The notes: a model not told the origin generated them from the letters alone. Shown: positions 5,908 through 37,240, counted from the first letter of the stretch. The stretch: 37,312 nucleotides of DNA from Candidatus Binatia bacterium (GCA_035476335.1 DATILO010000105.1:1-37312), one strand, 5' to 3'. Made by a program: numbers and translations.

Positions 5908-8626
<2,719 letters not shown>

Positions 8627-8913: not shown

Positions 8914-8920
8914 TCGTTAA

Positions 8921-9082
8921 CCGTTCTCAGGCAGGTTTGTCGTATCGTTGCTTCGTTTATGTCGTTGCACCCTGGTGATGGTTGTCGTTCGTGCGTTATC
9001 GATTTTTTGAAGACGACGCTACAAAACTACCTGGGAAGAAGAGCCAAGGTACAAACGACGCCTCAAATCTGCCGGGGACGCG
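8921..9082. repeat. cluster of four degenerate core motifs of the structured-repeat family (two forward, two reverse), forming an imperfect long palindrome
   Basis: Forward cores at 8921-8955 (CCGTTCTCAGGCAGGTTTGTCGTATCG) and 8971-9002 (GGTGATGGTTGTCGTTCGTGCG). Reverse cores at 9011-9045 (ACGACGCTACAAAACTACCTGGGAAGAAGAGCC) and 9049-9082 (GTACAAACGACGCCTCAAATCTGCCGGGGACGCG). Compare the core CCGGCAGTTTTGTCGTTCGTACGCG at 22530-22554. Confidence 0.55.
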
Positions 9083-9132
9083 CCAACGACGATAGCGCAA
9101 CCTTAATAAAGCCAACAACGTGCATTTCCTTC

Positions 9133-20451: not shown

Positions 20452-20920
20452 AGACCGTCACCTCGAGATAGCCAAAAGCGTAGTGATTCGTTTCCGGCAG
20501 ATAGAGCAGCACGGGAATCTGCGCAACGCGTGACTCCTGCCGGTTCGGGTCTTCCTTGTCATAGATGACCACCTCATCGGCATCAGGGTATATCTTGTGC
20601 ACGGATACCTTTGCATACTCAAACGTCTTGAAGTAATCCACTTGCACATTCTCGTTCGTGAGCAGTTCCGCGAACTTTCTTGCCTTGAGTTCATCGACGC
20701 AGTTCTCTCGCTGGACGCCGATGCGCGAGCACTCAAGTTCGGGCAGCGTGAGCGATTTCTGCGCAATCTGAATGACCTTGAGCTGCGCATTCTCCTCCAT
20801 CTGGCGCTTCACCGAGGACTCCTGAAGCTTGAAGTAGAAGCTCGCGCCGAAGATGAGGAAAAAGAAAAATACTACGAGTACCGCGAGCGATTCAAACATC
20901 TTGACTTGTGCGCGTTTCAT
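20444..20920 (-). CDS. type IV pilin-like protein B (MKRAQ then VKMFESLAVLVVFFFF)
   Basis: The ATG at 20920 overlaps the stop of gene C (ATGA). A class III-like N-terminus is followed by a roughly 125-aa extracellular part with 2 Cys. Confidence 0.6.
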   Translation of the reverse strand: MKRAQVKMFESLAVLVVFFFFLIFGASFYFKLQESSVKRQMEENAQLKVIQIAQKSLTLPELECSRIGVQRENCVDELKARKFAELLTNENVQVDYFKTFEYAKVSVHKIYPDADEVVIYDKEDPNRQESRVAQIPVLLYLPETNHYAFGYLEVTVFA

Positions 20921-21951
20921 CAGTAAATCGTCGGGCAGCTCTGCCTGAGGAGTGCCTCGTTTTCTCCTGCGATGGATTGTGCGGCAACCGTAAGCGAGCC
21001 CAAGTCCGCGAGCGCGTCGACCTGTGCGGCCGCGCCTGAGCGCAGGACTTCCAGGTTCGTCGTGCTGTAGCCGCACCGGAGCAAATCGCCGTTGGCCTGA
21101 AGCACAATCGCGCGGTTCTCCATCACCTGCGCGACGTAGGACAGGCGCTTCACGGCCTCCTGCATGTTGCAGCGGTACATATTGTCATCATAGGCAAAAA
21201 TGGTGGCGAACAGCCCCGCATCGCCGATGTAGCTCAGCGCGCCCGACTGCTCACAGTCGCCGGTGCGCTGCGGATAGCACTTGAAGAACGTCGCCTGGCT
21301 GCCGGACAGGTGCACGCCGGTGATGTCCGTGTCCTTGAACGACTCGTGGAACGTCGTGACGCTCGGCGTTGTTTCGAGGAAGACAAACTTCACCTGCTGG
21401 TAGTTCTCGTTCTTCACGCAACCCGCATCGGAACTGCAAATTTGGGAGGGCTCGATGAACTCCGCGTTGATTTTGTCGGGAAGCTCCTGCTGCAGTTGCG
21501 CCTTGAGTTGGAGCGACGGCGTGCTGGAGTCAGAGACAAAAAAATACTTGATGCGGTCGTTGGTGACGTACAGGAAGTTTCCCGCACGGAAGGGCACGTT
21601 CCACGGCAGCGTCCAGAACACGATGTCCTTGCCCTCAATGTGATTCGGGGAAAAGATGATTTTGTCGCGATAGTCGCGGCTCAGCGAGCCGACCCGAAAC
21701 GCGCATGCGCATTCATCGCTGCACCCGAAGTCGATGCCCGTGCGCGGCAAATCAATGCGTTGTGCGCTTCCTTTGGACGATGCCGCACCCGTCGTGATGG
21801 CATCCAGCTCGTTGATGAGCGCGAGGGAAAGCTTCTCCTCGCTGACACTCCGCTGCTTTTGGATAATGCTGAAGAAGAACGCGAGTATCACCGCGCCCGC
21901 GATGATGATGAAAATCCAGTTGAACTGGACTTCAAGCATGCCGCGCTTCAT
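20920..21951 (-). CDS. type IV pilin-like protein C (MKRG then MLEVQFNWIFIIIAGAVILAFFF)
   Basis: The ATG at 21951 overlaps the stop of gene D (ATGA), with an alternative ATG at 21963. The extracellular domain is about 310 aa and Cys-containing. Confidence 0.6.
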   Translation of the reverse strand: MKRGMLEVQFNWIFIIIAGAVILAFFFSIIQKQRSVSEEKLSLALINELDAITTGAASSKGSAQRIDLPRTGIDFGCSDECACAFRVGSLSRDYRDKIIFSPNHIEGKDIVFWTLPWNVPFRAGNFLYVTNDRIKYFFVSDSSTPSLQLKAQLQQELPDKINAEFIEPSQICSSDAGCVKNENYQQVKFVFLETTPSVTTFHESFKDTDITGVHLSGSQATFFKCYPQRTGDCEQSGALSYIGDAGLFATIFAYDDNMYRCNMQEAVKRLSYVAQVMENRAIVLQANGDLLRCGYSTTNLEVLRSGAAAQVDALADLGSLTVAAQSIAGENEALLRQSCPTIY

Positions 21952-22616
21952 TGCGCGAGCCATGGACTCACCAACGCCCGGTCGCCTTTGCCTTCGAGGC
22001 GGAGCGTGACCTTTCCTTCGAGAATCTTCGTACAGAACGCACCGTTCGCGGCCTCGACGTGGTCAAGAAGAATCGGCGTCTCGGCAAGCGGGATGAGGAA
22101 GACGTTCTGCGCATTGCCCTGCGCCGACTCGAAAACGAGCGGATGTTCGGTTTGGAACGTACCGAGGGCGGGATTATCCTTGCGACAGTCGGCCGCCTTC
22201 GCGTCCATGCCTGGACTGCAGAGCACGCAGAGTTCCTGGTAGCGCGTGGGGAGCGTCAGGTCAAGCTTCTTGACGCTTCCATAGTCGAGACTCACCCCTT
22301 TCACGGCATTGCGGAATTCGGTCTCGAAATTGACGAACGCGACTTGCTCGGAGCGCTGCGTGAATTGGCTGATGGCTTTGTAGCCGTAAAGCAGGATGAG
22401 GATGAAAATCGCGGCTGCGAGAATTAAGATGAATACCTGGCCGATGATTTGGGCACGTTTCTGGAGAGCACGCGACTCGCTGAAGGCTGCCCCGCGCCCG
22501 TCTCGCCGCGTCCCCTGCTCCTCCGTTCCCCGGCAGTTTTGTCGTTCGTACGCGTCGACCTTATGCGGGACCATCTCCGGCCTTGACGTGCGCTCTTCAT
22601 GGCAGCCATCAGCCAT
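21948..22616 (-). CDS. type IV pilin-like protein D (QKRAQ then IIGQVFILILAAAIFILILLYGY) with a 52-aa pre-motif leader
   Basis: The ATG at 22616 overlaps the stop of the giant gene (TAATG). No ATG/GTG/TTG exists between the repeat and the KRAQ motif, so the leader, largely encoded by repeat copy 2, must be translated if the motif is used. Confidence 0.55.
   Translation of the reverse strand: MADGCHEERTSRPEMVPHKVDAYERQNCRGTEEQGTRRDGRGAAFSESRALQKRAQIIGQVFILILAAAIFILILLYGYKAISQFTQRSEQVAFVNFETEFRNAVKGVSLDYGSVKKLDLTLPTRYQELCVLCSPGMDAKAADCRKDNPALGTFQTEHPLVFESAQGNAQNVFLIPLAETPILLDHVEAANGAFCTKILEGKVTLRLEGKGDRALVSPWLAQ
22462..22599 (+). repeat. structured repeat, copy 2 (138 nt), inverted relative to copy 1
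   Basis: Terminal helix TGGAGAGC (22462-22469) / GCTCTTCA (22592-22599), which includes one G-T pair. Identical core at 22503-22558. Confidence 0.75.
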
Positions 22617-25600
22617 TATCTCCTCCTCTTCCGCTTTTCCCCACGCACGAACGCTTCGAGCTCCGCTTCCAGCTCTGCCTTGTGCGTTGCGTAGTACGCT
22701 GCGGTGATGCGGAGCTTGCGGAAGAGCTCTTCCATCTCCTCCTTCGTGAGCTTGCCTCTTCTGAGGAGCCGGAGCTTGAGGAGCAATTCCTTGCGCTCCT
22801 TTGGTGAGAGTCCTGCGAGCGCGAGTTCGCGGAGCCGGTCGAGCGGGGTTTCCTCGCGCTCGAGCTGCTTGAGGAGCTTCGGGTGCTCGCGTTCCGCGAG
22901 TTCGCCCTTGATGAACGCATCGAGCTTGCCGAACGTCTTTGCGCTCACGTCTTCGGGACCGAGCTTCTTGAGGTCCGCGACCGAGAGCCAGTCCTCAAGA
23001 TGAGGTGTTTCTGGCTGCTTCTTCTCAGGTGCCGGAGGTAAGGGCGGCGCTTCAGGCGCAAGGAACGGAATGCTCTTGCGGAACTGCCGCAGGCGGCGCT
23101 TCACTTCCTCGGGTTTCTTGCGATAGTAGAGATAGCCGAGCACGATAAGCAGCAGGAGCAACAGGAGGAGCAGCCACCAGAGCCATCCGAGACCGCTGCC
23201 GTCGGAAACCAAGGGGTTCTTGCCCAGGCGGAATTCTTCGAGATTCGTCAAGCCATCGCCGTCGGGGTCTGCATCGGCTGCGGCATCGCCCTCGCAGATG
23301 ACATCGCCGAAGAAGAGGATTCTCCACGAGTCCGGAATCTCGTCGCCGCACGAGTGGCGCTGGCTTGCGCTGCAGCCGTACTCGTCAACGACTTCTCCGG
23401 ATGGCGTTCCGGGACACTTGTCAAGCGCGTCAGGCACGCCGTCGCCGTCCTCATCGGCAATGGCTGCGCAGACGCCGTTCACGCACGAGGTGCCGTTGAT
23501 GCAGTCCGCGCTGACCGTGCAGCTCTGTCCGACACCGCACTTTTGGGAACAGGCGCCGCCGCAGTCAATGTCGCTCTCGAGACCGTCAAGCTTGCCGTTC
23601 TTGCACGGATTGTCCGAGCAGATGCCCGCATCACAGTAGTTGCTCATGCAGTCTTCATTGATCGCGCACGTCTTGTTATTCGCGCATTGCGGACACTGGT
23701 TGCCGCCGCAGTCAATGTCGGTCTCGTTGCCGCCGTTGATTTTGTCCGTGCAGAGCGAGGGCTGGCAAATCTTGCTTGCGTTGCAGATGCGCGACATGCA
23801 ATCTGAGTTGATGGCGCACTTCTTGTAATCGGCGCACTGGGGGCAGATTGCGCCGCAGTCGACATCGGTCTCATTACCCACGTCAAAGAGCTGGTTGAGG
23901 CATTGCGGCGGAATCTTGCTGAAATCGATGATGACGCCGTCGCTCGGGAGCTCGGTGCTCAGGAGCGATGCCTTGTTTTCGGCCTTGACGCGGAAGTAGT
24001 AGCTCGTGCCGTTCGTGAGATTCAATCCCGTGACCCACCAGGGCAGTCCGTCGAGAATGACGCTCGGCGTCCAGTTCTTGAGCACGACACTGGTCGCCTT
24101 TTCCTGGACAAGATAGTGATAGCGCGAGACATTGCTCTCATTGTCCGTGCCGTTCATCGCGATGCGGAGCTGATTCTTGAAGTACGAGTACTGCGGCCAC
24201 TCAGGGTTGTTGCTCGTGTCGTCTGCATAGAGCATGTCCGGCGGAGTCGTATCAACGTAGAACGTGACATTGATAGTCTTCTGCTCGATGCCTGCTGCGG
24301 ACGTGCCCGAACCGGTCGCGCACGTGACCGGGATGGAGTACGGTCCGGGTCCCGGGACCGTGATGAGCGTCGTGTGCGCCATCGCAGCCGTATCCGTGCT
24401 GCCGATGGGCAGGAGCGCGCCGTCCTGCTCATAATAGCAGAACGTGTCCTTGTTCGTTTCGACACCGAGAGGAACGGTGACATTGCCGACAAACGGCGGG
24501 ACAATGCTCTTGACGGTGAGGCTCAAGTTGAGGTTCACGCTGAACGTCACGGAAGCACTTGCGGGACCCAGCCCTGCGAGATTCTTGCAGGCAATCTTAT
24601 AGGTGTAGGACGCGGGCGCGGGAACCGTCACGTTGACCGCGTGGCCCTGCAGGCCGAGAATGCCGAACATCGGGAATACGCCTTCCATGAGGTCATAGTT
24701 GTTCGTAGTGTTGCTGTACTTACAGAAGGTGAGGTCATCCGTCTGCACTTTCAGCGTCGTCTGCAGCGGCATCTGGACAATCGGGTTGGGAATCGCGAAG
24801 GCCGTGACAATCTTGGGCGGGCTCGTGTCCACGGTAAGATAGAATGTGCTGCTTCCCGTGCCCGTGACCGGGTCGACGCAGCGCACATACACTTTATAGG
24901 GTGTGTTCTCCTTGGTGATTTCGTTAAACACGTTCTTCAGATGCACGAAGTCATTCGTGCTGTCAAAGGGCTGGAGCGCGGTGAACAAGCCGGGCGGCGG
25001 AACGGTCTGGCTGCTCCAGTAACGGCATTCCGCGACGCTGTCTGTCTCGACCGCGAACGGGAACGAGAACGTGCTGCTCACTCCGTACGGCGGGAGCTTG
25101 AGCGTGACGATGGGAGGGGCTGCGTTCACGACGAAGAGACTGCTGTTCGTCGCAGGCGAGAGCGGGTTACCTGCGTAGTCGGTGACGATGGGGCGGATGA
25201 TTTTCTTGCCCTCCGTCAGCGTGAGCGTCGCGGTGTACGTGCGATTGTCGTTGCCCTTTGCAAAGAGCCCGGTAATATCATGAATTTCCGGCACGCTGAT
25301 GGGTCCCGCGCTCGTGTTATAGATGACGTATTCAATGAGGGTGAAGTTCTGGACAATCACCGGCTCGCTGAAGTTGACCTTGAGTGTGGTCGAGCCCGTG
25401 CTCAGCACCGCGCTGTCGGTCGGCGTGTAGTTTGCAATCGGCGGCGTCGTGTCAACGACGGCAGGTACGCTCACCGGGGCGTCCATGTAGACGTTGTTCG
25501 TGTCACGTGCATTGGCGGAGAAAATATACTTCCCTTCGGCAAGCGATGTTCCCGACGGCACGGTGAGCGTGTACGCACCATTGAATCCTGACGCGGGCGA

Positions 25601-27667
25601 CTTGTCAAGTTCCGTGACGTCCGTGCCCTGGACAAAGCCCGCAAACGTCTGATCCGCGGGTTCGTTGTAGGAAATAATGGTCACGGGCGTGTGCGAGTTA
25701 GTATAGTAGGTTCCGTTGACCTTCCTTCCGGGCGTGATGTTGAGCGTGAGCATCTTGGGACCCTGGCACGCGGTGCAGGCGAAGACGTTGAAGGTCTTGA
25801 TGACTTCCAGGTTTTTGTTCGGGTCCTTGGAATAGTAGCGGAGCGTGTTCCAGCCGGGGCTCATGGTCAGGAGCGTCGTGTTGCCCTGCTTGAGCTCGAG
25901 GTCGTTGAAGTTGAGCTGGGTGAAATTCGTCGCGACAAAATTCGTGCACGGCGTTCCGCCTTGCGCGCCTGCGCAAAAGAACACGCCCCAGTTCACGTAT
26001 TCGGGAATCTTGGAATCACACTGCTTGACGCAGAACTGGAGCTGCTGCGACGGCTGGACGAGATGCCCGAACTCCGTTGCGTTGCTCCGCTCCCAGAGCC
26101 GGACATCGAGATAGTCGTACTTGCCCGCGCTGCCCGTCGGGATGAGTGTCGTGAGCGCGGGGAAATAGTCGCGTTCGCAGACCGGGTCGTTCACGCCGCA
26201 GTCCGGCCAGTACGACGTGAGCGGAGTCGCGTCGGCATTCTTGTGACAACCGGGATTATTGTTGAGCGGCACGCTGGAATCGTATTGGCACACCTTGATG
26301 CCGCACGGGTCGGTGCTCGGGTTCGCGATGCTGTTGTCCGGATTGAGCTGGATTGCGCCCTGCGGAGAACTGCACTGCCCCGGGGTATAGTCCTTGCAGG
26401 TGACGGTGCTGCAGTCAGAAGCTTGCCCATTCGTATAGAAGCACTGATGCTCAGGTGTGCTCAGCGCGATTGCCTTCTGGGGCGTGCACTGGTCGAAAAC
26501 ATTGTTGTAGGAATTGTACGTGGGCGCGCCTGCCGTGCCTTGCTTGTCGCACCAGGCGCAGTTGTTGAAGCGCTTGTCAACGCAGACTCCTGAACCGACG
26601 TCCGAGAACGTGTCCACCCACTCGCAGGCGCCGAGACCGCAGTTGTTGCGCTCGCACGCGCCCTTGCTCTTGTAGTCATAGCAGTTGAGCCCTTGGTTGC
26701 AAATGTAGCATGTATCCACGCTCGTCTGGCTCCGATCCAGGAAGCAGTAGTTTTCGTTGCCAGCCGTTCCTTCGCACTGGTCAACCGTGGCACCGAGCCC
26801 GAAAATACCCTCGTTGGGGTCGCACGGACCGGGTGAGCGGCATGATGGCGTGAGCCCTTGCGCGACGCAGATGGTGCCCGCATCACAAGGAAGGATGATG
26901 CTCAGCTTGTTGTCGACATCGCACGCGGCAGCCTTGTTGAACTTCGTGAAGAAGACCGCGCTTACGGCGCTGTCGAAGTTCACGAATGCAGATGCGGCTG
27001 TTGCAGGATCGCCTGCGTAGCCATACGTCTGCAGGTACGTCTTGAATGAATTATAATACGCGCTGGAAATGCAGAAGCTCTCGAGACCGTACTGGTTCTC
27101 GCATTCCAGGTCGCCCGTATTCACGCTCTTTGTCGCCGGCGGACTGTCGCCCTGGATGCTGTACTTCGCGATGACCTTGTAGGTGTACGCCGTATTCCAG
27201 CGCAGCTCAGGACTGCCGTCGATGAAACTCGATGCGGGCCCGATGATGGCGACCTGCTGGAAGTTCGAGCAGCTCGTGCCCGTGCACCGGCTGATGACAT
27301 ACGCGTCCGCAACGCAGACCTGGTTCCAGGAGAGCTTGATGGCGCGCTTGCCTTTCACGGGAACAACGCTCAGGTTGCCAGGAGCAGGATTGAATGACGC
27401 GGAACCGCATGCGCCTGTCGTTACATTAGGAATCGCGGTGACTTCTCCGCATTTCGTACTGCAGCTCTTATTGAGCGCGATGTCGGTCGCGGTGGGAGCA
27501 ACAAAGTCCGGGTATTCCGGCAGGCATTCGGAGGAAGGCAGATACGAATCGACCTGTGCGGTGGCCGCCTCCAGGTTGCAGCAGCAGCCCGAATCGGCCG
27601 TCACGGCAATCGCGGCAAGCGCGAACGCCAGCAGTACAATGAGTCCTATTCGCGGGAATGGTTTCAT
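22616..27667 (-). CDS. giant (1683 aa) secreted, C-terminally membrane-anchored Cys-rich surface protein
   Basis: Sec-type signal MKPFPRIGLIVLLAFALAAIAVTA. A long Cys-rich N-terminal region is followed by several Ig-like modules bounded by VDT(T/S)PP. Then come three Cys-rich modules (nt 23468-23911), D-x-D-G-D-G TSP3-like repeats (23195-23467), TM GLGWLWWLLLLLLLLLIVLGYLYY (23123-23194) and a 168-aa K/E/L/R-rich tail (22619-23122). There are many N-x-S/T sequons. Confidence 0.85.
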   Translation of the reverse strand: MKPFPRIGLIVLLAFALAAIAVTADSGCCCNLEAATAQVDSYLPSSECLPEYPDFVAPTATDIALNKSCSTKCGEVTAIPNVTTGACGSASFNPAPGNLSVVPVKGKRAIKLSWNQVCVADAYVISRCTGTSCSNFQQVAIIGPASSFIDGSPELRWNTAYTYKVIAKYSIQGDSPPATKSVNTGDLECENQYGLESFCISSAYYNSFKTYLQTYGYAGDPATAASAFVNFDSAVSAVFFTKFNKAAACDVDNKLSIILPCDAGTICVAQGLTPSCRSPGPCDPNEGIFGLGATVDQCEGTAGNENYCFLDRSQTSVDTCYICNQGLNCYDYKSKGACERNNCGLGACEWVDTFSDVGSGVCVDKRFNNCAWCDKQGTAGAPTYNSYNNVFDQCTPQKAIALSTPEHQCFYTNGQASDCSTVTCKDYTPGQCSSPQGAIQLNPDNSIANPSTDPCGIKVCQYDSSVPLNNNPGCHKNADATPLTSYWPDCGVNDPVCERDYFPALTTLIPTGSAGKYDYLDVRLWERSNATEFGHLVQPSQQLQFCVKQCDSKIPEYVNWGVFFCAGAQGGTPCTNFVATNFTQLNFNDLELKQGNTTLLTMSPGWNTLRYYSKDPNKNLEVIKTFNVFACTACQGPKMLTLNITPGRKVNGTYYTNSHTPVTIISYNEPADQTFAGFVQGTDVTELDKSPASGFNGAYTLTVPSGTSLAEGKYIFSANARDTNNVYMDAPVSVPAVVDTTPPIANYTPTDSAVLSTGSTTLKVNFSEPVIVQNFTLIEYVIYNTSAGPISVPEIHDITGLFAKGNDNRTYTATLTLTEGKKIIRPIVTDYAGNPLSPATNSSLFVVNAAPPIVTLKLPPYGVSSTFSFPFAVETDSVAECRYWSSQTVPPPGLFTALQPFDSTNDFVHLKNVFNEITKENTPYKVYVRCVDPVTGTGSSTFYLTVDTSPPKIVTAFAIPNPIVQMPLQTTLKVQTDDLTFCKYSNTTNNYDLMEGVFPMFGILGLQGHAVNVTVPAPASYTYKIACKNLAGLGPASASVTFSVNLNLSLTVKSIVPPFVGNVTVPLGVETNKDTFCYYEQDGALLPIGSTDTAAMAHTTLITVPGPGPYSIPVTCATGSGTSAAGIEQKTINVTFYVDTTPPDMLYADDTSNNPEWPQYSYFKNQLRIAMNGTDNESNVSRYHYLVQEKATSVVLKNWTPSVILDGLPWWVTGLNLTNGTSYYFRVKAENKASLLSTELPSDGVIIDFSKIPPQCLNQLFDVGNETDVDCGAICPQCADYKKCAINSDCMSRICNASKICQPSLCTDKINGGNETDIDCGGNQCPQCANNKTCAINEDCMSNYCDAGICSDNPCKNGKLDGLESDIDCGGACSQKCGVGQSCTVSADCINGTSCVNGVCAAIADEDGDGVPDALDKCPGTPSGEVVDEYGCSASQRHSCGDEIPDSWRILFFGDVICEGDAAADADPDGDGLTNLEEFRLGKNPLVSDGSGLGWLWWLLLLLLLLLIVLGYLYYRKKPEEVKRRLRQFRKSIPFLAPEAPPLPPAPEKKQPETPHLEDWLSVADLKKLGPEDVSAKTFGKLDAFIKGELAEREHPKLLKQLEREETPLDRLRELALAGLSPKERKELLLKLRLLRRGKLTKEEMEELFRKLRITAAYYATHKAELEAELEAFVRGEKRKRRR

Positions 27668-28965
27668 GAACTGGTTCCTGCAGGGATGCGGAACGTCAAA
27701 CGGTCCGTCAAATCGGGATCAGTGAATTGGGAGTCGGAGGCCTCGACGACGATTTGCACCTCGCGATAACTGCTCGCATCTTCGTACGTGACCGTGTAGC
27801 TTGGTTGCAGCGGATTCTGCTGCCCGCCTGCGAACGCGCGGAACGTCACGGCATCCTCATCGGGGTCGTACGCGCGCACTTCGACATTGAATCCGGTGAA
27901 TGAGCCGACGCAGTTCGACACGTCGCCCGACAGGTGCGTGCCGTCGAAGGAGATGACGCTGCCGTCGCAAAGCTTCCACGTCGCGATGGTGTCATTGGGA
28001 ATCCACACGAGCGCGGGAGCACGGTTCTTGCGCGCAACTTGGAAAACATATTGGACGCCTCCGAGACTGGACGCAGGGTCAATAAATTGCAGGAGATCGT
28101 CGTGCAGGTATGCGTCATGCGAGGTCGAGACCTGCACCTGGTCAAGCACGAGCGATGTGGGGTCGAACGACAGGTTGGTGACCTCCTTATCCATGACGTA
28201 ATGCGCAAGCTCGTGAATCGCCTTCATCCGCACCGGAAGCTCCGTCGCAAAGGAATCAACGTGCGTCTTGGTTCCGGAAACCTCGCTCGTGAGATTTGCC
28301 GGATAATAGAGCAGGAACGATGTTCCGCGCGTTCCGAACACCACCTGCAGGGAAGGCGTCCCGGTCTCGACGGAGAGTCCTTGCTTCTCAAACACGCTCC
28401 AATCGATGCAAGACTGCGTTTTGGCCAGGACCGCGGCTTCAAGTTCCTCCTGGAGCGAGTTCGTTCCTTCCAGTTGCAGCAGCTGATTTCTGCCGAAATA
28501 GCCTTGGAGATATTCCGGAATGAGCACGTCGTACGTACCGAGCGCGTTGGGCGTGTCGTTGTAGAGCATCGGGAACGTGGGCCAGGGATAGTCAGGAGTC
28601 TTTGCGAAGAAAAGCGTGCCGACGTTTCCTTCCGGCGGCAAGATGGCATAGGTCACCTTCGTGGTGCCGTCGAGCACGTAGTCCGTGCCGAGCACGAGCG
28701 GGTCGGGAGTGATGCCGCCCTGGCTCGTGTAGACGTGGCCTCCTTGCTTGCCGAGGATTTCAATGATGGAGCGTGCTGACAGGTCCAGGCACTGCGTCAC
28801 GTACTCTTGGACCGGCTTCAGGAGCGCGGCCGTCCGTTGCTGGGTTTCCACGCGTTCTTCCCCTCTTTTGCTGCTCGCGGAGCGTGCCGCGTACAAAACG
28901 ATGCCCACGATGATGAGCACCAACAAAACAACAATGATGATGAGCGTCAGCTGGCCACGGCGCAT
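27664..28965 (-). CDS. type IV pilin-like protein E (MRRGQ then LTLIIIVVLLVLIIVGIVLYA), 433 aa
   Basis: The ATG at 28965 lies 1 nt after the stop of the 1352-aa gene, and the stop overlaps the ATG of the giant gene (ATGA at 27664-27667). Confidence 0.6.
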   Translation of the reverse strand: MRRGQLTLIIIVVLLVLIIVGIVLYAARSASSKRGEERVETQQRTAALLKPVQEYVTQCLDLSARSIIEILGKQGGHVYTSQGGITPDPLVLGTDYVLDGTTKVTYAILPPEGNVGTLFFAKTPDYPWPTFPMLYNDTPNALGTYDVLIPEYLQGYFGRNQLLQLEGTNSLQEELEAAVLAKTQSCIDWSVFEKQGLSVETGTPSLQVVFGTRGTSFLLYYPANLTSEVSGTKTHVDSFATELPVRMKAIHELAHYVMDKEVTNLSFDPTSLVLDQVQVSTSHDAYLHDDLLQFIDPASSLGGVQYVFQVARKNRAPALVWIPNDTIATWKLCDGSVISFDGTHLSGDVSNCVGSFTGFNVEVRAYDPDEDAVTFRAFAGGQQNPLQPSYTVTYEDASSYREVQIVVEASDSQFTDPDLTDRLTFRIPAGTSS

Positions 28966-28966
28966 G

Positions 28967-31900
28967 TTACCCTGGCCGGAGTTTTGCCGTGAGGTCTCGC
29001 CACGCATTCGCGATGGGCGGGGTGGCAGTCTGGTAGACGTCCGTCACGATGCGCATTTCACCCGTGCTGTTCGTGCACGCGGCCTTGCCATCATATTTCT
29101 GGATGAGGTTGAAACAGGGATTGGGTCCGAGGTCGACGTTCGCGTAGCGCACGCCGATGTAATCCTTCGGCGGCAGCGCGGTGGAGAACTTGATGCCGGT
29201 CTCGTAGAACGCGAACAGCATATGGTCATCCGCGCGCGCGGCATAGAGCTTGTTGAACGTGTGCGTGTTGTCAAAGAAGGAAAAGTCATTGCCCACACCC
29301 GGATTGTTGAGCATGGCGGACACGAATTGTTTGAGCGCATTGAGCGGGTCCGCGATGAACTGGTCGAACCACTCGCTCACGGATGTTCCGCCGAGCGTGC
29401 CGGAGGGGATGGAAATGAGACTGTTCGTCTGCGGATTATACCAGAGTCCTGGTGCGCCGGAACACTCAGTGTACCCTGTTCCCGAGAGCGCGTTATCGCA
29501 CGCCGTTGCCGCCTTGTTGACGCCCGTCGGGTTCGTCAGGAAGCTCTTGGCTGCATCATCGACCGGGTTGTTCAGACTGACTCCCCACGCGACTCCGTTC
29601 GGCGTTTCGAGCACGCAGAAGTTGTTCACACAGGGAACGCCCGTGCCGAGGATGGAACAGCTGGAGTCGCCGACATAATTTGCGACGCTCTGCGGAACGT
29701 TCAACGCCTTATCCGATTTGTCGCAGAAGAGCCGGTACGCGGTCGGCGATGTGGAGTCAATGTAGTCAAAGAGTTGGAGTGCAATATTTTTCGTGCGCGT
29801 GCTCCAAATGCCGTTTTCACACGCGTGGTCCTTGATATACTGGCCGTCGGCAATACATTGAGGATAGAACACGCCAGGTGTGGTGTCAAAGTACTTGTCG
29901 GGCTGGTCGTTGTTGATTCCTGTACCTGCCGTCGTGATGAGGCACTGGTCTTCGCGCGGGCAGTAGCCCTTGACTCCCCGGTCCCAGCTGTAGCGGAGCG
30001 TTCGGAGAATCCAGTTGCCGCCCTCGCAGCGGTAGCCCGAGTCCGTCGAGCCGAACGGATACTGGTAGCCCCCTGCTGCACCGAGTTGATCGTTCTGGCA
30101 GCCCTGGTGCACGCCCGAGCCTTGGAGGTTGGAATCGCCGGTCCAGCAGCTGGTCGTGTTGCAGCATTCCTCAAGGAGCGTTCCCGCGGGAGCAGTCCAC
30201 GCGATGTTCTTGAGCTCGGTGCGGTTGGTCGGCGGCGAGTCAACCTTCCATTTGCCGGTGCTCGAGCAGAAGTATTCGCCGCTCGCGCTTGAGCCAGGGA
30301 TGACGTCGCACGCTTCATGAGACGTGGGCGCAGCGGAACTCGGGGAGCTTCCTGAGCTCTGCAGACTGCAGAGGTCGTCCGCACTCAATGCCTGCACGTC
30401 GGCGTCGCTGAGCGCGTGGTCATAGATTTGCACCTCGTCCAGTGCTCCGCGGAAATTTCCCGACGGGATGACATAGCCGCCGATGTACAATGGTTGGCTG
30501 TTCTGCAAGCTTCCGCTGGCAAGCGTTGTTTGGGTTTTCACCAACACCCCGTCAATGTACAGTTTGAGCTGCTTTCCTTGGCGTTCTGCCGCAACGTGGT
30601 GCCACTGGTCTTGCCAGAATGAAGGACCGTAATTAGTGGAATCATTTTCTGTGATGGTGGCGGTGGTTCCCTGAGAAATGAGGTAAAAGCTCAACGCGCC
30701 TTGCATGTAATACAACTCGTAGCCGGAAGGTTGGCTGACGAGATAAACGCTGGGTGATATCTTATAGACAATGACGTAACCTCCATCGTACGACGAGTCA
30801 GCGACGGGCTTCATCCAGGCGCTGATGGTGAAATCATCGCCGGAGCCGAAGTCGAGGTTCGGGTTGTCGCTGATGTTCACCGAGGAACTGGTGCTCAGGG
30901 AAAACGCCTGTCCGGTATGGCCTGCGGAGTAACTCGCGACGCCGTTGAATTTGCCATCGTTGCCATCGACGCTGTCTTGAACGTTTCCTTCTGCCTTCCA
31001 CCAACTCACGAGACCGTCGGGCGTGCAGGATTGTGCGGGAGCGGCGCTCACGGCTGCGTTGCAGCCCTGCAATGTTCCATTGAACGCGAGAATAGTTCCG
31101 TCCTCGACGGTGTTGCCGTTCGCGACGAACGTGCTGTCCCAGCACACGCCGATATCGCCGGGAGCCTCATACGTCTCATGCGCGTCGTCTGCCTCGGAAC
31201 AGCATCGTTTCGCAAGCCACGCGAAGCCCGCCTTGGTGCAGGATTCCTCGTCCTTGGAATCAAGGTCTTTCGTGTAGATTCCGTCTGATGCACAGTAATA
31301 CGTTCCGCCCGGCGTGAGAAGCGTCGTGCCCGTCGGCATGCTGTTGAGCATGCTGAGGCCGCCGTGCGAGCCCGCGCATTCCGTCGCGTTACGCTTGGTG
31401 CGATTGCAGGAGTAATAGTGAGGCAGATCAGAGATGTTGTTGATCCACGCGAGCGGGCGAGCGTCAAGCGTCGCGATATCGGTGGTGCTGCCACCGCATT
31501 CGTAGAATCCGCTGCCGTTGCTCACAACCGTGATGTCCGGACAGCCCGTGTCGACGGGCCGCAGGTCGGCAATATCGCCGGGAAGGTAATTGCTTGCCCA
31601 CTTCCACTTACCGTCGGCAGTCTTGCCGCAGATGCCGACATCCTGGAGGTAGGTGCCGCAGCTTGCGGTATCCATGCCGGTTGCGGCTGCACCGCAGCAC
31701 GTGCCGCCGTGGCCGTTCGGCCCGCCATAGGCAATCCAGTCGCCGCCTTGGTCAAGGCACGGCTTTGCCTGGATGAAGTCACAGGTTTTTTCCTTGTCCG
31801 CGTCGATGCAGGCGTACGCGTTGGCGGTGTCGGTTGATTGCGCAGTTATTTCCGTGTAGTCCGTGCTGCCGCCGAGCCACGTCATCACGTCGGAAGCCGT

Positions 31901-33025
31901 GTCACCGATGGTGACGGGGTACGCTGATTCCCAGTCACACTTGCCATCGTAGGTATTATCGGTGCAGGTGTAGAGATGATTATTGAGATTCGTCGTCTGC
32001 TGCACGCCATCTTGCGGCGTCGTGGTGGGCGTGTTCGCCGCGTCAAACCAGAGAAGCGTTGCGGCATTTCGATAGGAATTGTCAACCTTGAGCTGGGGGC
32101 TGCCGCTGAGGCCCGGGAGCAAGGAGGTCAGCGAACCCAAATCAACGGACTTGTCCCCCTCTGAGATGATTTTTCCGCTTCCCTGAGCTTTCGTGCCTGC
32201 AATGTCCCAGAAGGTCGCCGTAATGGTTCCCTTATTGATACCGGAATAGACCGCGCCACATTCGACAAACGTGATTTGATTGGCAGCGATGGGCGGGTCG
32301 AAGTTGACAAGCGGAGGGTACGTGTTATCACATCCCGAATCATAGACCGTTTGGCCGTTGTTCGTCACGAGTGCCTGCGTGGGTCCAAGATTGTTGTAGA
32401 AGCCATCGGTTGCCGTGAGCGATAATGACGAGAGGTAGTGTGTTCCACCCAGTCCCAGCCCGACCTTCATCTTACTCGATGAAGAGGTGGTGCTCGAACT
32501 GGTGTTCGTCTTCGTCACGGTTCCGTTGAAGATGCGCCAGTACGCCTCGCGGTTGCGCTGCAGCAACGGCTTCATCACGCCGAGCTGCTTTGCCTGGTCG
32601 TTGAGCCAGACGCCGGAGCTATTGTGCGTAATATCCGCGCCCACATACCAGAGCCCCCAGCTTTGGCCGTTCGGGTCGCGCCCGCAGACACGCACCTCAT
32701 CAGCCATGCCTGAGAAATGCTTCGTGGGCACCAAGACGCTGTCGCCATATCCCCACTCCTGGTCTTCCTGCTGGACAACGCCGTCAATGAGCAATTGAAT
32801 TCCGGTGGCAACCCACAAGCCGTGTTTGCCTGCATGCCAGTTCAGCGCATAGGCATCGAAAACGTACACTGGTGAAGGAACGGAAAAGACCGTTTGGTAC
32901 GCCCAACAGTAGTTGTAGGTGTAGCCGTTCGTTTTGCCGAAGATACTCCAGTCAAAGTTGGCTCCCTGAGCCACGGACGCGAGAAATACTATAGTAAGTA
33001 CTGTTAACAGACCTCTTTTTACCAT
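28967..33025 (-). CDS. giant (1352 aa) secreted Cys-rich protein with a central LamG/concanavalin-A-like domain
   Basis: Sec-type signal MVKRGLLTVLTIVFLASVAQGA. LamG_3-like segment (nt about 30386-31020): LVSWWKAEGN...FTISAWMKP...WHHVAAERQGKQLKLYIDG...PLYIGG...FRGALDEVQIYDHALS. No C-terminal TM helix was seen. Confidence 0.85.
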   Translation of the reverse strand: MVKRGLLTVLTIVFLASVAQGANFDWSIFGKTNGYTYNYCWAYQTVFSVPSPVYVFDAYALNWHAGKHGLWVATGIQLLIDGVVQQEDQEWGYGDSVLVPTKHFSGMADEVRVCGRDPNGQSWGLWYVGADITHNSSGVWLNDQAKQLGVMKPLLQRNREAYWRIFNGTVTKTNTSSSTTSSSSKMKVGLGLGGTHYLSSLSLTATDGFYNNLGPTQALVTNNGQTVYDSGCDNTYPPLVNFDPPIAANQITFVECGAVYSGINKGTITATFWDIAGTKAQGSGKIISEGDKSVDLGSLTSLLPGLSGSPQLKVDNSYRNAATLLWFDAANTPTTTPQDGVQQTTNLNNHLYTCTDNTYDGKCDWESAYPVTIGDTASDVMTWLGGSTDYTEITAQSTDTANAYACIDADKEKTCDFIQAKPCLDQGGDWIAYGGPNGHGGTCCGAAATGMDTASCGTYLQDVGICGKTADGKWKWASNYLPGDIADLRPVDTGCPDITVVSNGSGFYECGGSTTDIATLDARPLAWINNISDLPHYYSCNRTKRNATECAGSHGGLSMLNSMPTGTTLLTPGGTYYCASDGIYTKDLDSKDEESCTKAGFAWLAKRCCSEADDAHETYEAPGDIGVCWDSTFVANGNTVEDGTILAFNGTLQGCNAAVSAAPAQSCTPDGLVSWWKAEGNVQDSVDGNDGKFNGVASYSAGHTGQAFSLSTSSSVNISDNPNLDFGSGDDFTISAWMKPVADSSYDGGYVIVYKISPSVYLVSQPSGYELYYMQGALSFYLISQGTTATITENDSTNYGPSFWQDQWHHVAAERQGKQLKLYIDGVLVKTQTTLASGSLQNSQPLYIGGYVIPSGNFRGALDEVQIYDHALSDADVQALSADDLCSLQSSGSSPSSAAPTSHEACDVIPGSSASGEYFCSSTGKWKVDSPPTNRTELKNIAWTAPAGTLLEECCNTTSCWTGDSNLQGSGVHQGCQNDQLGAAGGYQYPFGSTDSGYRCEGGNWILRTLRYSWDRGVKGYCPREDQCLITTAGTGINNDQPDKYFDTTPGVFYPQCIADGQYIKDHACENGIWSTRTKNIALQLFDYIDSTSPTAYRLFCDKSDKALNVPQSVANYVGDSSCSILGTGVPCVNNFCVLETPNGVAWGVSLNNPVDDAAKSFLTNPTGVNKAATACDNALSGTGYTECSGAPGLWYNPQTNSLISIPSGTLGGTSVSEWFDQFIADPLNALKQFVSAMLNNPGVGNDFSFFDNTHTFNKLYAARADDHMLFAFYETGIKFSTALPPKDYIGVRYANVDLGPNPCFNLIQKYDGKAACTNSTGEMRIVTDVYQTATPPIANAWRDLTAKLRPG

Positions 33026-33080: not shown

Positions 33081-33629
33081 ATGGAAAAGAAGGTGATTAT
33101 CGAAGGAGCATCCCTTTTGCTCGTCATTCTCGCAGTTCTGGGCATCTGGTACTTCGCACGAATGCCTGCCTCAGAACCCGCATCGCAAGCCACGATTCCT
33201 ACCTTTGACGCATCGCTGGCAGCCAAGGGCTGTATCGATGAAGGCAAAGCCGTGGTTGACCTGCTCGCGGCAGTTGACGCGAAAGATGCCGCTCGCTGTC
33301 CTTCACTCTCACCGCACAACGCGTTTTGCAAGGCAGCGCTTGGTGTTGACGAATGCGCCGGACTCGCGCTCATGCAGGAACAAGCATCATGCGCAGCCAT
33401 TCTCGCAAAGAAACCCGCCTCCTGTGAAAAGGATGAATTGTGTCACATTCTCGCCGGAGACACCTCCTGCTCGACCGGCACGGACCACGACTTCTGCATG
33501 GCCGCCGTTGCGCGAGATAGCAACAAGCTTACGGACCCTGCTGCGTGCGAGCAGATTGCGCAGAACATGCAGCAACGCATTACCTGCACCAGCCAGGCAC
33601 AAAACGACGCCGAAGCTGCCGCCTGCTAG
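33081..33629 (+). CDS. small N-terminally anchored Cys-rich protein (182 aa)
   Basis: TM helix ASLLLVILAVLGIWYFA followed by about 150 aa with about 13 Cys at roughly 10-15-residue spacing. I recognise no family. Confidence 0.55.
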   Translation: MEKKVIIEGASLLLVILAVLGIWYFARMPASEPASQATIPTFDASLAAKGCIDEGKAVVDLLAAVDAKDAARCPSLSPHNAFCKAALGVDECAGLALMQEQASCAAILAKKPASCEKDELCHILAGDTSCSTGTDHDFCMAAVARDSNKLTDPAACEQIAQNMQQRITCTSQAQNDAEAAAC

Positions 33630-34207
33630 TGCAGCGCGGATGATGCTTCCGACGGATGCATCCCCAAGACGACAAAAAGCGCTTTCAAATCATCAGGATT
33701 TCTCATTCCCGCAGGTGAGGCCGCGAAGCTCGCGATGTGCAACGGCACCTTGAACTTTCTGCAGAGCGAAATGTTCTGCGTCATTCTCCCGAGGAGTTGT
33801 GCGCGCCGTTCGCCGTGCGTTTCCAGCAACGAGCGGAACGAGAATGCGACCGCCACCTGGTTCTTTGCGCAGAGCCGCGCGAGCACATGGTTCAGTCCTG
33901 ACGCGCGCTGATGCAATGCGTCATGACGCGGACTCGATTCCAAATCAAAAAGGAGCGTCGGATGGCTGTGCTCCACGAGATGGACATCCTTGTCCGAACT
34001 CTTCACAAGCACGAATTTTGCCTTCTGCCGCGCGCGCTCCACGGCCAGGGGACCGGTGATGAGCGCATTGGTGATGGGAATCGGGGATGCCTGCCGGTAG
34101 AATGACGCAGGGTCGCTGTAGACAAACACGAGCTGCTTGATGCCCAGCGTCTGCGCACGGGCGATGAGCGCGGCCTCGTTGTGGTCGGGAAAGACGATGT
34201 CTTGCAT
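33626..34207 (-). CDS. rnp3: RNase P protein component 3 (Rpp30)
   Basis: SGLNHVLARLCAKNQVAVAFSFRSLL...ERRAQLLGRM...CRKFKVPLHIASFAASPAGMRNPDDL...VLGM aligns well from memory to archaeal Rpp30 (GIDHVLAKL...VALGFSLRPLL...ERANLL...SSA...R.PRDL). Confidence 0.75.
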   Translation of the reverse strand: MQDIVFPDHNEAALIARAQTLGIKQLVFVYSDPASFYRQASPIPITNALITGPLAVERARQKAKFVLVKSSDKDVHLVEHSHPTLLFDLESSPRHDALHQRASGLNHVLARLCAKNQVAVAFSFRSLLETHGERRAQLLGRMTQNISLCRKFKVPLHIASFAASPAGMRNPDDLKALFVVLGMHPSEASSALH

Positions 34208-34227
34208 ACGGCCTTCGTCCGCCGATG

Positions 34228-34238
34228 GTTATTTAAAC
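34228..34238. promoter_or_regulatory. near-palindromic TATA (TTATTTAAA) between rnp3 and the pseudouridine synthase gene
   Basis: Lies about 26 nt from the rnp3 ATG (34207) and about 160 nt from the ATG at 34393. A rightward transcript from this box would therefore carry repeat copy 3 as its leader. Confidence 0.4.
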
Positions 34239-34256
34239 GTTTGTAGCGAGAAACGA

Positions 34257-34386
34257 GGAGGACGCCGCCTGTTGGCCAGCGAGCTGAAGGCCGGCTGAAG
34301 TCCCGCATCAGGTCGCTGCTACGACGTCCAATCTGCCGGAGAACGGCAAACGACGCAATGCAGCGACAGCGAGCGGGGCGTCCTCC
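34257..34386 (-). repeat. structured repeat, copy 3 (130 nt)
   Basis: Perfect 10-bp terminal helix GGAGGACGCC (34257-34266) / GGCGTCCTCC (34377-34386). The interior aligns at about 70% by eye to copy 1 (CGTTCTCCGGCAGATTGGACGTCGT...CCGGCCTTCAGCTCGCTGGCCAACAGGCGGCG). It ends 6 nt before the ATG at 34393. Confidence 0.7.
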
Positions 34387-34392
34387 AACACC

Positions 34393-35100
34393 ATGCTTCA
34401 ACGACTCCAAAAAATCATCGCGGCAGCAGGCATCGCGTCGCGCAGAAATGCAGAAACGCTCATCGAACAAGGGCGCGTCATGCTCAACGGCAAACAGGCA
34501 ACTATTGGGCAGAGCGCCGACCCGGAAAAGGACGCCATTCTTGTCGACGGCAAGCCCGTCAAGCGCGAGCAGCACATCTACCTCATCCTCAACAAGCCGA
34601 AAAATGTCGTGACGACGCTCGCGGACGAGCTCGGACGCACGACGGTGCGCGACATCATCGACATTCCCGAACGCGTCTTTCCCGTCGGCAGACTTGACCG
34701 CAACGCGACAGGACTGGTGTTGCTGACAAACGATGGCGAGGTCGCGAACCGGATGATGCATCCCCGCTACGAGACCGCGAAAACGTACGTCGCAATGCTC
34801 TCGAGCCCCGTGACTCCTCAATTGCTCGAACGTCTCCGCAAGGGCGTCATGGTCGAGGACCGCAAGGTCGCGGTCGAGAATCCCGTCAAGGTGAACCTGA
34901 ATACCGTTCAGATTTCCATCCACGAAGGCAGGAAGCACGTCGTCAAGAAACTCTTTGTCCAGCTGGGCACGCATGTCGACGCGCTGACGCGCACCGAACT
35001 CGGTCCCTTGCGGCTCGGCACCTTGAAACCCGGCGAGTCGCGGAAGCTCACGCCTGCGGAAGTCTCAAGCCTGCGTCGTGCCCTGCAGCTGGAGAAATAG
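34393..35100 (+). CDS. RsuA/RluB-family pseudouridine synthase with an N-terminal S4 domain
   Basis: S4 motif LQKIIAAAGIASRRNAETLI. Catalytic motif GRLDRNATGLVLLTNDG. An in-frame TGA at 34285 excludes an N-terminal extension. Confidence 0.85.
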   Translation: MLQRLQKIIAAAGIASRRNAETLIEQGRVMLNGKQATIGQSADPEKDAILVDGKPVKREQHIYLILNKPKNVVTTLADELGRTTVRDIIDIPERVFPVGRLDRNATGLVLLTNDGEVANRMMHPRYETAKTYVAMLSSPVTPQLLERLRKGVMVEDRKVAVENPVKVNLNTVQISIHEGRKHVVKKLFVQLGTHVDALTRTELGPLRLGTLKPGESRKLTPAEVSSLRRALQLEK

Positions 35101-36774: not shown

Positions 36775-36906
36775 TGGAGCTTGCCGTGCGCTCATGTCGC
36801 TGCTCGTCAGGCTCTTGCTTCCCCGGTAGTTTTGTCGTTGCGTTCGCAGCGACCAGTGGCCGGTTTGCAGAAGGTTCCTCACTCGCGCACCTTCAGGCAA
36901 GCTCCA
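36775..36906 (+). repeat. structured repeat, copy 4 (132 nt)
   Basis: Perfect 11-bp terminal helix TGGAGCTTGCC (36775-36785) / GGCAAGCTCCA (36896-36906). Core CTTCCCCGGTAGTTTTGTCGTTGCGTTCG at 36818-36846. The left end lies 10 nt from the thiI-like ATG (36764). Confidence 0.7.
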
Positions 36907-36937
36907 GCGTGCAGGCGTTCCTTTTCTTCACAGCCAA

Positions 36938-36949
36938 AGCTTTATAAAC
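36938..36949. promoter_or_regulatory. palindromic TATA (AGCTTTATAAAC) for rpl34e and possibly, leftward, for the thiI-like operon
   Basis: Lies about 27 nt upstream of the rpl34e ATG at 36971. A leftward transcript would carry repeat copy 4 as its 5' leader. Confidence 0.5.
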
Positions 36950-36970: not shown

Positions 36971-37240
36971 ATGGTCGCACCACGACTGAGATCGCGAACT
37001 TTCACGCGCAGGAAGACGCGCACGCCCGGCGGCAGGCACGTCATTCACTATGCGCGGCGCAAGCCCGGACGGGCGGAATGCGCGTACTGCGGAGACTACC
37101 TGAAGGCAGTCCCGCGCGGACGTCCTTCCGAGCTCCGTGGCCTGCCGAAGTCCGCGAAACGCCCTGAACGACCGTTCGGCGGCGTGCTCTGCTCGAAGTG
37201 CATGCGCGCCCATTTCAGAAAAGCGGCACAGGCCATCTAA
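36971..37240 (+). CDS. rpl34e: 50S ribosomal protein L34e
   Basis: [16 protein letters not shown]...C-x-x-CG...GG.LC..C is the characteristic L34e pattern. Confidence 0.9.

Follow-up and report, generated by a model that had tools for sequence, protein, structure and literature searches.

The region upstream of an RsuA/RluB-like pseudouridine synthase gene, in a stretch of DNA of 37.3 kb (37,312 nt; hereafter the window, on whose full length all positions are counted), raises the question of why a palindromic repeat closed by a covarying helix should lie directly beside a start codon. Protein homologues place the host, an organism from soil, among Woesearchaeota-like archaea of the DPANN group. 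The original prediction held that the repeat is one of four structured copies and that it forms a 5′ leader whose helix could gate translation. We find the copies and their structure to be real, and we favour a different reading of what they are: the repeat is probably a single copy of a palindromic mobile DNA element, non-autonomous and lineage-specific, carried by a Woesearchaeota-like (DPANN) archaeon. Comparison with orthologous sites shows it as an insertion that occurs in both orientations and is kept only at gene boundaries. The locus is composed as follows.

34208-34392, no strand: intergenic region between the divergent RNase P p30 gene (33626-34207, minus strand) and the RsuA/RluB-like gene, made up mostly of copy 3
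34229-34238, no strand: TATA box TTATTTAAAC, common to the divergent p30 (ATG at 34207, minus strand) and RsuA-like genes and conserved in relatives
34257-34386, plus strand: copy 3 (c3), type A palindromic element of 130 nt, between the shared TATA box and the RsuA/RluB-like ATG; 135 bits with the covariance model
34257-34266, plus strand: 5′ arm of the c3 closing helix, GGAGGACGCC
34311-34367, plus strand: inner long hairpin of c3, in which GGTCGCTGC (34311-34319) pairs with GCAGCGAC (34360-34367) and encloses a diverged core, CGACGTCCAATCTGCCGGAGAA
34377-34386, plus strand: 3′ arm of the c3 closing helix, GGCGTCCTCC, ending 6 nt before the ATG at 34393
34393-35100, plus strand: RsuA/RluB-like pseudouridine synthase gene (S4 and PseudoU_synth_2 domains), leaderless in relatives

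We compared the window with syntenic loci of relatives, which were recovered through homologues of the pilin-like and RsuA-like proteins; L048/L052 and L056 provided empty sites, as did L050 for the site in the first pilin gene. The results showed that the RsuA site is empty in L052 (89% identical protein) and in L056 (80%), with gene order kept. The layout in both is p30-CAT, 21 nt, TTATTTAAA(C/T), 21 nt and ATG, an intergenic region of 52 nt as against 185 nt in the window, where the same TATA box is followed by 18 nt, the 130-nt element, 6 nt and the ATG, so that the site is about 133 nt longer than in the relatives. BLAST homology with the relatives ends exactly at the edges of the insertion. 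At the ThiI-like site, the distance between TATA box and ATG is 17-18 nt in the relatives and 171 nt in the window (10 + 132 + 29 nt). Overall, two or three related Woesearchaeota genomes with conserved synteny lack the element at the sites orthologous to all four window copies (p30-RsuA, ThiI-like and the two pilin genes), and this does not fit a dedicated leader or translation gate. The covariance model described below found no match in the syntenic DNA of the relatives (~50 kb). Copy 3 is identical in two other assemblies and is not an assembly artefact. L054, another assembly of the locus, extends the window by 7.8 kb. The L055 contig (SRR9648401), from an independent assembly, terminates inside copy 4 at window position 36856, a break that we attribute to the tendency of repeats to interrupt short-read assemblies; copy numbers in metagenome-assembled genomes are therefore probably underestimated.

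In at least six genes of the window an 8-mer TATA box starts at −30/−31 from the ATG, which is the layout of leaderless genes. By this spacing rule, transcription of the RsuA-like gene is predicted to start near 34259, the third base of the c3 5′ arm (and that of the ThiI-like gene near 36918), and a leaderless RsuA-like mRNA would therefore have become one with a leader of about 134 nt. The proposed Shine-Dalgarno gate has no counterpart at this site, in that the TATA boxes at −30/−31 indicate leaderless translation and no Shine-Dalgarno sequence lies between the closing helix and the RsuA ATG. When the predicted full leader was folded together with the start of the coding sequence, alternative pairings were obtained that gave no clear answer on access to the AUG. 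A structured leader of about 134 nt that lacks a Shine-Dalgarno sequence probably lowers translation of the RsuA-like gene, rather than representing evolved regulation.

In two cases a single, nearly palindromic TATA box appears to be used by a pair of divergent leaderless genes, p30 and the RsuA-like gene in one and the ThiI-like and L34e genes in the other. The shared boxes are conserved in relatives, with the ATGs about 21-23 nt away on either side. The RsuA/RluB-like synthase itself has, beyond Woesearchaeota, named homologues at about 50% identity that include Chloroflexi and Dehalococcoidia proteins, which hints at a bacterial origin of the archaeal gene.

Repeat finding and alignment placed four copies in the window where the original prediction had located them. 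The three copies other than c3, together with the second shared TATA box, are listed here.

20238-20414, plus strand: copy 1 (c1), closing helix GGGAGAGCGCC / GGCGCTCTCCC, with a 45-nt internal insert; 125 bits; antisense to the pilin-like gene that contains it
22479-22613, canonical strand minus: copy 2 (c2), closing helix GCTGATGGCTGCC / GGCAGCCTTCAGC with one T-T mismatch; sense to its gene; 58.8 bits, held out of the model
36775-36906, canonical strand minus: copy 4 (c4), closing helix TGGAGCTTGCC / GGCAAGCTCCA, between a shared TATA box and the ThiI-fer/THUMP ATG at 36764; 32.7 bits, held out of the model
36941-36948, no strand: TATA box TTTATAAA, common to the ThiI-like gene (minus strand) and the L34e gene (plus strand, ATG at 36971)

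An exact-pattern scan of metagenomes returned 13 contigs of the soil metagenome Ga0307473 (JGI), and full type A copies with the same architecture are found in four of them (L026, L037, L033 and L034). The census of type A elements therefore comprises eight full copies, four from the window (c1-c4) and four from Ga0307473. The same scan yielded only chance matches in GTDB genomes, including a coding match in Micrarchaeota, and no match in IMG/VR; BLAST searches of plasmid and phage collections were also without a match.

The element is about 130 bp long, and its ends are an inverted repeat of 10-13 bp with the form GGAG-NNN-GCC...GGC-N′N′N′-CTCC (the arm pair can also be given as GGAGNNNGCC...GGCNNNCTCC). 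Three hairpins are arranged around a conserved core, CGACAAAACTGCCGGGGAA, and the whole folds into a four-way junction that the terminal helix closes. The most conserved part of the element is this central core, not the termini. The shared interior blocks that had been reported were recovered, as a 17-mer from the core, ACAAAACTGCCGGGGAA, has 6 matches at ≤3 mismatches when 0.14 are expected by chance. Five or six arm variants occur among the eight copies; the outer GGAG and the inner GCC are invariant and the variable positions lie in the middle of the arm. Identical arms are nevertheless found in different contexts, in c3 and L034 and again in c1 and L026. Six copies (both copies re-found in L054 are counted) have their arms 119-122 nt apart, a constant spacing although the sequences of c3 and c4 differ greatly, and the distance reaches 165 nt in c1 because of the 45-nt internal insert (20353-20397). 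This insert is absent from relatives, as are 18-29 nt outside the closing helix at 20415-20443 (c1), 22461-22478 (c2) and 36907-36935 (c4), and no repeat of these extra nucleotides was found elsewhere in the window or in the related loci examined. Copy sizes range from 130 to 178 bp, and no reading frame is conserved across the copies.

The claim that the closing helix is kept by compensatory change stood up well. In a hand-registered alignment of the arms of all eight copies, six of the 13 closing-helix pairs were changed on both sides and none on one side only. Neither the observed covariation nor the percentage paired was reached in any of 500 shuffles, and sliding the partner by 1-3 columns gave 32-57% pairing compared with the 82% observed. 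A covariance model trained on five copies (L037, c3, L026, L034 and c1) recovered the held-out copies at full length, with 58.8 bits for c2, 56.5 bits for L033 and 32.7 bits for c4. In the model-fitted alignment the closing helix is 96% paired, with double changes at 4 of 10 pairs and again no one-sided change, and in helix 3, the inner hairpin, the copy groups differ by one double change, C-G to U-A. For c2, the helix originally proposed, TGGAGAGC (22462-22469) with GCTCTTCA (22592-22599), exists as an additional or alternative pairing that involves 18 extra 3′ nt, but the helix homologous to those of the other copies is GCTGATGGCTGCC (22613-22601) with GGCAGCCTTCAGC (22491-22479).

All changes in the closing helix are from one Watson-Crick pair to another, without G-U intermediates, and the fold z-scores are alike on both strands (c3, −5.5 on the plus and −6.0 on the minus strand; c4, −3.1 and −3.4). 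Strand-specific RNA normally shows G-U pairs and strand asymmetry. Since G-U pairs are missing and the two strands fold equally well, the constraint appears to act on the DNA, or on both strands, rather than on a strand-specific RNA.

Every one of the eight full copies is start-proximal: c3, c4, L026, L037 and L034 occupy the interval from TATA box to ATG, and the other three (c1, c2 and L033) fall within the first three codons. The distances from 3′ arm to ATG that had been given for c3 (6 nt) and c4 (10 nt) were correct. When orientation was tabulated against the downstream gene, six copies were sense and two antisense (c1 and L034), which contradicts a single functional orientation; c1 in particular is antisense to its gene. 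An enrichment for tRNA and rRNA functions did not emerge either. The neighbouring genes encode RsuA-like and ThiI-fer/THUMP proteins, two pilin-like proteins, a glycosyltransferase, a NOG1 GTPase, a MOFRL/DUF4147 protein and one unknown protein, and are thus functionally diverse.

Two of the window copies are situated inside open reading frames and are read in frame, so that the repeat is not an untranslated leader throughout. The genes concerned and the blocks that relatives lack are the following.

19768-20451, minus strand: prepilin-like gene 1, TTG start at 20451 with a GAGGTGA Shine-Dalgarno sequence; relatives start MRKGQMEIL or MAKGQMEIL
20234-20443, minus strand: block around c1 absent from relatives, about 210-213 nt (edges ambiguous by a few A), in frame and stop-free, between TTGCGTAA (start codon at 20451) and AAAAGAGCACAA-ATG
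21948-22616, minus strand: prepilin-like gene 2, with GGAGGAG before its ATG, which overlaps as TAATG with the stop codon of the 1683-aa gene upstream
22461-22613, minus strand: block at c2 absent from relatives, 153 nt (51 codons, in frame, no stop), between the ATG at 22616-22614 and AAACGTGCCCAA (KRAQ), including 18 extra nt 3′ of the closing helix

In pilin gene 1, L048 reads ATGCGTAAGGGACAGATGGAA (MRKGQMEIL) and L050 encodes MAKGQMEIL, whereas the window reads TTGCGTAA, then about 210 nt open in frame, and then AAAAGAGCACAAATGGAA; the orientation of c1 is opposite to that of the gene. The start codon is TTG at window position 20451 as against ATG at position 12010 of L048, while the GAGGTGA and the overlap with the upstream stop are kept. 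Homologues of pilin gene 2 are 160-176 aa long and start with MRKGQ, MKRGQ or MKRAQ followed by I(L/I)GQVF, and in L048 the ATG of this gene overlaps the stop codon of an upstream 1684-aa gene (ATGA overlap). The N-terminal motif looks like a class III (prepilin-type) signal peptide. The adjacency of c1 and c2 to KRAQ codons, on which the original prediction had relied, exists, but it arises because both copies are inserted within the leader-peptide codons of prepilin-like genes. In a third case, the L033 copy directly follows an ATGA stop/start overlap and forms a 46-residue extension of a PMT_2/GT22-like membrane protein.

The three copies are read in frame and without stops over about 70 codons (c1), 51 codons (c2) and 46 codons (L033), and the downstream proteins are intact and homologous to those of relatives, which suggests that the copies within open reading frames are translated. 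Of the frames of the elements, 26 of 48 are open, and an insertion would be both in frame and open by chance in about 1 of 6 cases; three such insertions out of three are the residue that purifying selection on still-functional genes would be expected to leave. A long cytoplasmic prepilin leader appears plausible, because the leaders of pilin homologues elsewhere have 2-25 residues and one homologue (P0022) has a 37-residue extension before its HRGQ motif. The extended prepilins of the window would have leaders of 52-75 residues, with cleavage expected after KRA/KRG. A six-frame concatenated peptide query of 5.8 billion proteins gave no match, the shared words being too short.

Two other interpretations of these genes were considered and rejected. 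An original start of the c2-bearing gene at ATG 22600, implying a 137-nt insertion plus a GAA repeat, was discarded in favour of ATG 22616, which overlaps the upstream stop as in relatives, has the GGAGGAG and gives the 153-nt in-frame block. A bulge-helix-bulge intron, which has a 4-bp helix between two 3-nt bulges at its exon-intron junctions and whose removal would restore MKRAQ, was discarded since the closing helices are uninterrupted over 10-13 bp, there are no bulges and no exon-exon helix, and the insertions are in frame.

In another Woesearchaeote the orthologous pilin-like gene carries, at the same place, a different in-frame, stop-free insertion, of 111 nt, at positions 1914-2024 of L050 (GCA_964360075.1, the source of P0022; also in L051). 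It directly follows an ATGA stop/start overlap, is closed by GGTGAAC.../...GTTCACC, and on the minus strand begins with GGTGAACGCCGC, a sequence similar to the type A arm GGAGAACGCCGC. This insertion escaped the covariance model, and its fold z-score was not significant.

The repeat survives only where genes are left intact. In leaderless genes this is the gap of about 22 nt that separates TATA box and ATG; elsewhere it is the first three codons, where the copies are in frame and stop-free. The N-termini that tolerate it would be dispensable ones, either a cleavable prepilin leader or a cytoplasmic tail before the first membrane helix. Movement would take place in trans, through an enzyme encoded elsewhere, and this enzyme may read the ends as a folded single-stranded DNA hairpin or cruciform and not as a fixed sequence. 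Ends read as structure would explain why the arms are variable yet strictly Watson-Crick, why the spacing is fixed and why there is no target-site duplication. IS200/IS605/RAYT enzymes act in this manner on repetitive extragenic palindromic (REP) hairpins, as do integrases on attC sites.

Several known systems resemble the element in part. Prokaryotic MITEs (transposable elements of the miniature inverted-repeat kind), such as Correia/NEMIS, ERIC, Sulfolobus SM and those of a MITE-dense Woesearchaeal genome, are likewise small, multicopy, non-coding and lineage-specific, have terminal inverted repeats and are co-transcribed with their neighbours. The type A repeat is a multicopy, non-coding element below about 800 bp with terminal inverted repeats, and it is present or absent at orthologous sites (4 of 4 window sites are empty in relatives); a fixed-length target-site duplication was not found. 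Its four copies in 37.3 kb correspond to about 107 per Mb, a density that matches the 105 MITEs per Mb which a 2024 census recorded for a Woesearchaeal genome, among the highest values in archaea (PMC11602168). MITE-rich Woesearchaeota are thus already known at the census level. In full-text literature searches no paper paired Woesearchaeota with MITEs, and the few that paired DPANN with MITE added nothing to the entry in that census. Canonical MITEs differ from the present element in having conserved terminal sequences and target-site duplications, whereas here the arms vary with compensation, the centre is conserved and no duplication is seen. Sequence-variable but complementary termini and start-proximal placement are the unusual traits of the element.

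In-frame palindromic insertions in protein genes are known from the Rickettsia palindromic elements (RPEs; PMC10969869). RPEs are also palindromic repeats of about 100-150 bp that fold into hairpins, occur both between genes and, in frame and stop-free, within them, and have no associated transposase (PMC10969869). As with RPEs, copies lie in frame within host reading frames (c1, c2 and L033). RPEs, however, use many internal positions and encode a conserved peptide, while the present copies occupy the first 1-3 codons in varied frames and orientations and encode no conserved peptide; moreover, the host of RPEs is an alphaproteobacterium and not a DPANN archaeon. No similarity in sequence to RPEs was seen, although no search aimed at RPE sequences was made. 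RPEs, together with prokaryotic MITEs in general, are the closest analogues of the element. REP elements and bacterial interspersed mosaic elements (BIMEs) with their REP-associated tyrosine transposases (RAYTs, of IS200/IS605 type), and integron attC sites, provide the precedent for recognition as folded single-stranded DNA hairpins, by structure over sequence and without target-site duplication. In contrast to these systems, no RAYT, TnpA or integrase is encoded in the DNA examined, there are no attC core sites, and orientation alternates without an array. The type A repeat is also a compound four-way structure close to gene starts, unlike REPs, which are 3′-proximal. An identity as an integron attC site was rejected for the missing core sites (RYYYAAC/GTTRRRY) and the alternating orientation.

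Several observations weigh against a mobile element. The absence of target-site duplications, as originally claimed, was borne out, and at the eight pairs of flanks we found no consistent duplication, no shared flank motif and no shared tetranucleotide; the comparison of c3 with its empty site leaves about 3 unexplained nt and no matching repeat adjoining the arms. Neither the window nor the related loci, about 180 kb in total, encode a transposase or recombinase or contain an autonomous parent IS with matching ends, and a search of the same DNA for long elements bounded by the same arms gave only the copies of about 120 nt. Presence/absence polymorphism was seen between species only, with none within species. 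The blocks that relatives lack exceed the helix-bounded element by 3 to about 35 nt at c1, c2 and c4. The covariation is supported by eight copies, so its statistics are indicative and below R-scape grade. Finally, type A elements are start-proximal while their type B relatives, described below, lie after stop codons or upstream of TATA boxes, a split that pure tolerance predicts poorly and that could reflect targeting or function. The start-proximal placement of all eight copies is the most interesting part of the finding.

One extension of the mobile-element reading, which we put forward only tentatively, is that the copies belong to an undescribed class of archaeal mobile hairpins whose ends are recognised purely by structure and which integrate preferentially at starts of translation or transcription, either between TATA box and ATG or after stop/start overlaps. 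Within that class, different members might have hit the same few prepilin leader nucleotides repeatedly in different Woesearchaeota (c2, and the 111-nt insertion in GCA_964360075.1), a notion that we likewise regard as possible and not as probable.

It is unlikely, in our judgement, that the repeat is an ordinary MITE family with sequence-specific terminal inverted repeats, in which the covariation would reflect subfamilies derived from different masters or transposases, each with its own perfect pair of ends, and the hairpin itself would not be under selection. The identical arms in different contexts (c3/L034 and c1/L026) would be expected of such subfamilies, and the invariant outer GGAG and inner GCC and the absence of G-U pairs also agree with it. 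However, five or six arm variants in eight copies would need as many transposase specificities, and it is the centre of the element, not its termini, that is most conserved, for which reasons several subfamilies with their own sequence-specific transposases are less likely than ends read as structure. A protein that reads GGAG and GCC would, in addition, have no need of complementarity in the variable middle of the arm, and the sites show no target-site duplication. The argument of the original prediction against sequence-specific recognition of the ends was reasonable.

Quite unlikely, too, is a module of mobile origin that has been domesticated or is otherwise selected by the host as RNA, in which the helix would bring the 5′ end of the mRNA beside the AUG or would mark the leader for endonucleolytic removal resembling tRNA punctuation, restoring near-leaderless translation. 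The start-proximal position of 8 of 8 full copies, which type B relatives do not share, speaks for such a role, as do the constant size, the four-way junction closed by a terminal helix and the retention of that helix in copies as diverged as c3 and c4. Inspection of the sequence, however, revealed no bulge-helix-bulge at any junction, and there was no tRNA-like or ribozyme match. The copies inside reading frames are in frame and stop-free, so they would be read through and not removed; the antisense copies and the strictly Watson-Crick changes also speak against an RNA module, and no positive evidence for a domesticated role was obtained.

The reading with which the question began, a cis-regulatory RNA leader whose folded transcript pairs GGAG with CTCC beside the start codon and so gates translation of RNA-modification genes, we now consider improbable. 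Like riboswitches and other structured 5′ leaders, the element has a stable closed fold in a 5′ untranslated region beside a start codon; c3, c4, L026 and L037 lie in sense orientation in the predicted 5′ untranslated region, with the 3′ arm 6-29 nt before the ATG, and the closing helix shows compensatory changes. Unlike a riboswitch, which is conserved at orthologous genes and in one orientation, the element is absent from orthologues in relatives with RsuA-like proteins that are 80-89% identical, occurs antisense to its gene in c1 and L034, and lies inside open reading frames in c1, c2 and L033. Leaderless genes are the default in this genome, the GGAG precedes the ATG by more than 120 nt with no Shine-Dalgarno sequence between helix and ATG, and the predicted start of transcription removes the first two bases of the c3 5′ arm. 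There is no strand-specific signal, in that the closing helix has no G-U pair and one strand folds as well as the other. Nor do the neighbouring genes share a function. That the repeat belongs to no known class was confirmed to the extent that no Rfam family matched it, even at E≤5; Rfam at gathering thresholds and at E≤5 returned only two tRNA-Arg genes and chance C/D-box fragments, and ARAGORN made no tRNA-like call at the copies. The promoter and terminator scan was a bacterial one and is uninformative for an archaeon.

A family of independent small non-coding RNA genes with their own promoters is very improbable, for although a TATA box lies about 20 nt upstream of c3 and L037 and would place a start at the first bases of the element, those boxes belong to host genes and are conserved in relatives that lack the element, c1, c2 and L033 are in operon reading frames without a TATA box, and no terminator follows the element and no Rfam family matches it.

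If the favoured reading holds, a false lead is removed, since a covarying helix beside a start codon mimics a riboregulator and would be explained by selfish palindromic DNA. These data would also describe, for the first time, the anatomy of the repeats that underlie the very high density of MITEs reported for some Woesearchaeota. They suggest how a packed, leaderless DPANN genome accommodates such elements, either in the gap of about 22 nt between TATA box and ATG, where mRNAs become leadered, or as translated extensions of prepilin leaders. Should placement reflect targeting and the ends be read as structure, the element would be a useful model of structure-specific DNA transposition in archaea.

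A second type of element in the window shares the core with type A.

8914-9100, plus strand: type B element, immediately following the stop codon of the parvulin gene and upstream of the TATA box of gatD

In type B elements a long hairpin forms between the core CGACAAAACTGCCGGGGAA and an imperfect complement upstream of it, TTCCCnnGCAGtTTTG. Others are present in L054 (8038-8125) and in the Ga0307473 contigs L020, L022, L034, L039, L041, L043, L044 and L047. By reading of the flanks, in which the ends of the open reading frames were checked for most cases and not for all, about nine lie directly after stop codons in constant orientation and three lie upstream of TATA boxes. In this they are like REPs, which are also simple imperfect hairpins right after stop codons. 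Type B may be a 3′-end or terminator-like hairpin, or the occupant of another tolerated niche.

The core motif is further found inside coding sequence, at N- or C-terminal tails, in L018 (~750-780), L022 (~7270-7310) and L023 (~1246-1290), in frames that differ (TTKLPGK versus DKTAGE), which suggests that these are additional translated fragments of the repeat.

Because the repeats are located at gene starts, they cause start codons to be miscalled, and N-terminal extensions and wrong starts were seen for the RsuA-like gene, gatD and the pilins. The RsuA-like gene in the L054 assembly is called 29 codons short. The longest gatD open reading frame (8959-10419) starts within the type B repeat; the gene itself probably begins with the ATG at 9135, about 31 nt downstream of a TTAATAAA box.

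The two prepilin-like genes belong to an operon on the minus strand (19768-33025) that also contains several genes without a Pfam match, a gene for a 1352-aa protein (Laminin_G_3) and that for the 1683-aa protein (no Pfam match). At least three Woesearchaeota contigs share this operon in syntenic form, and its products may make up an apparatus for adhesion or at the cell surface.

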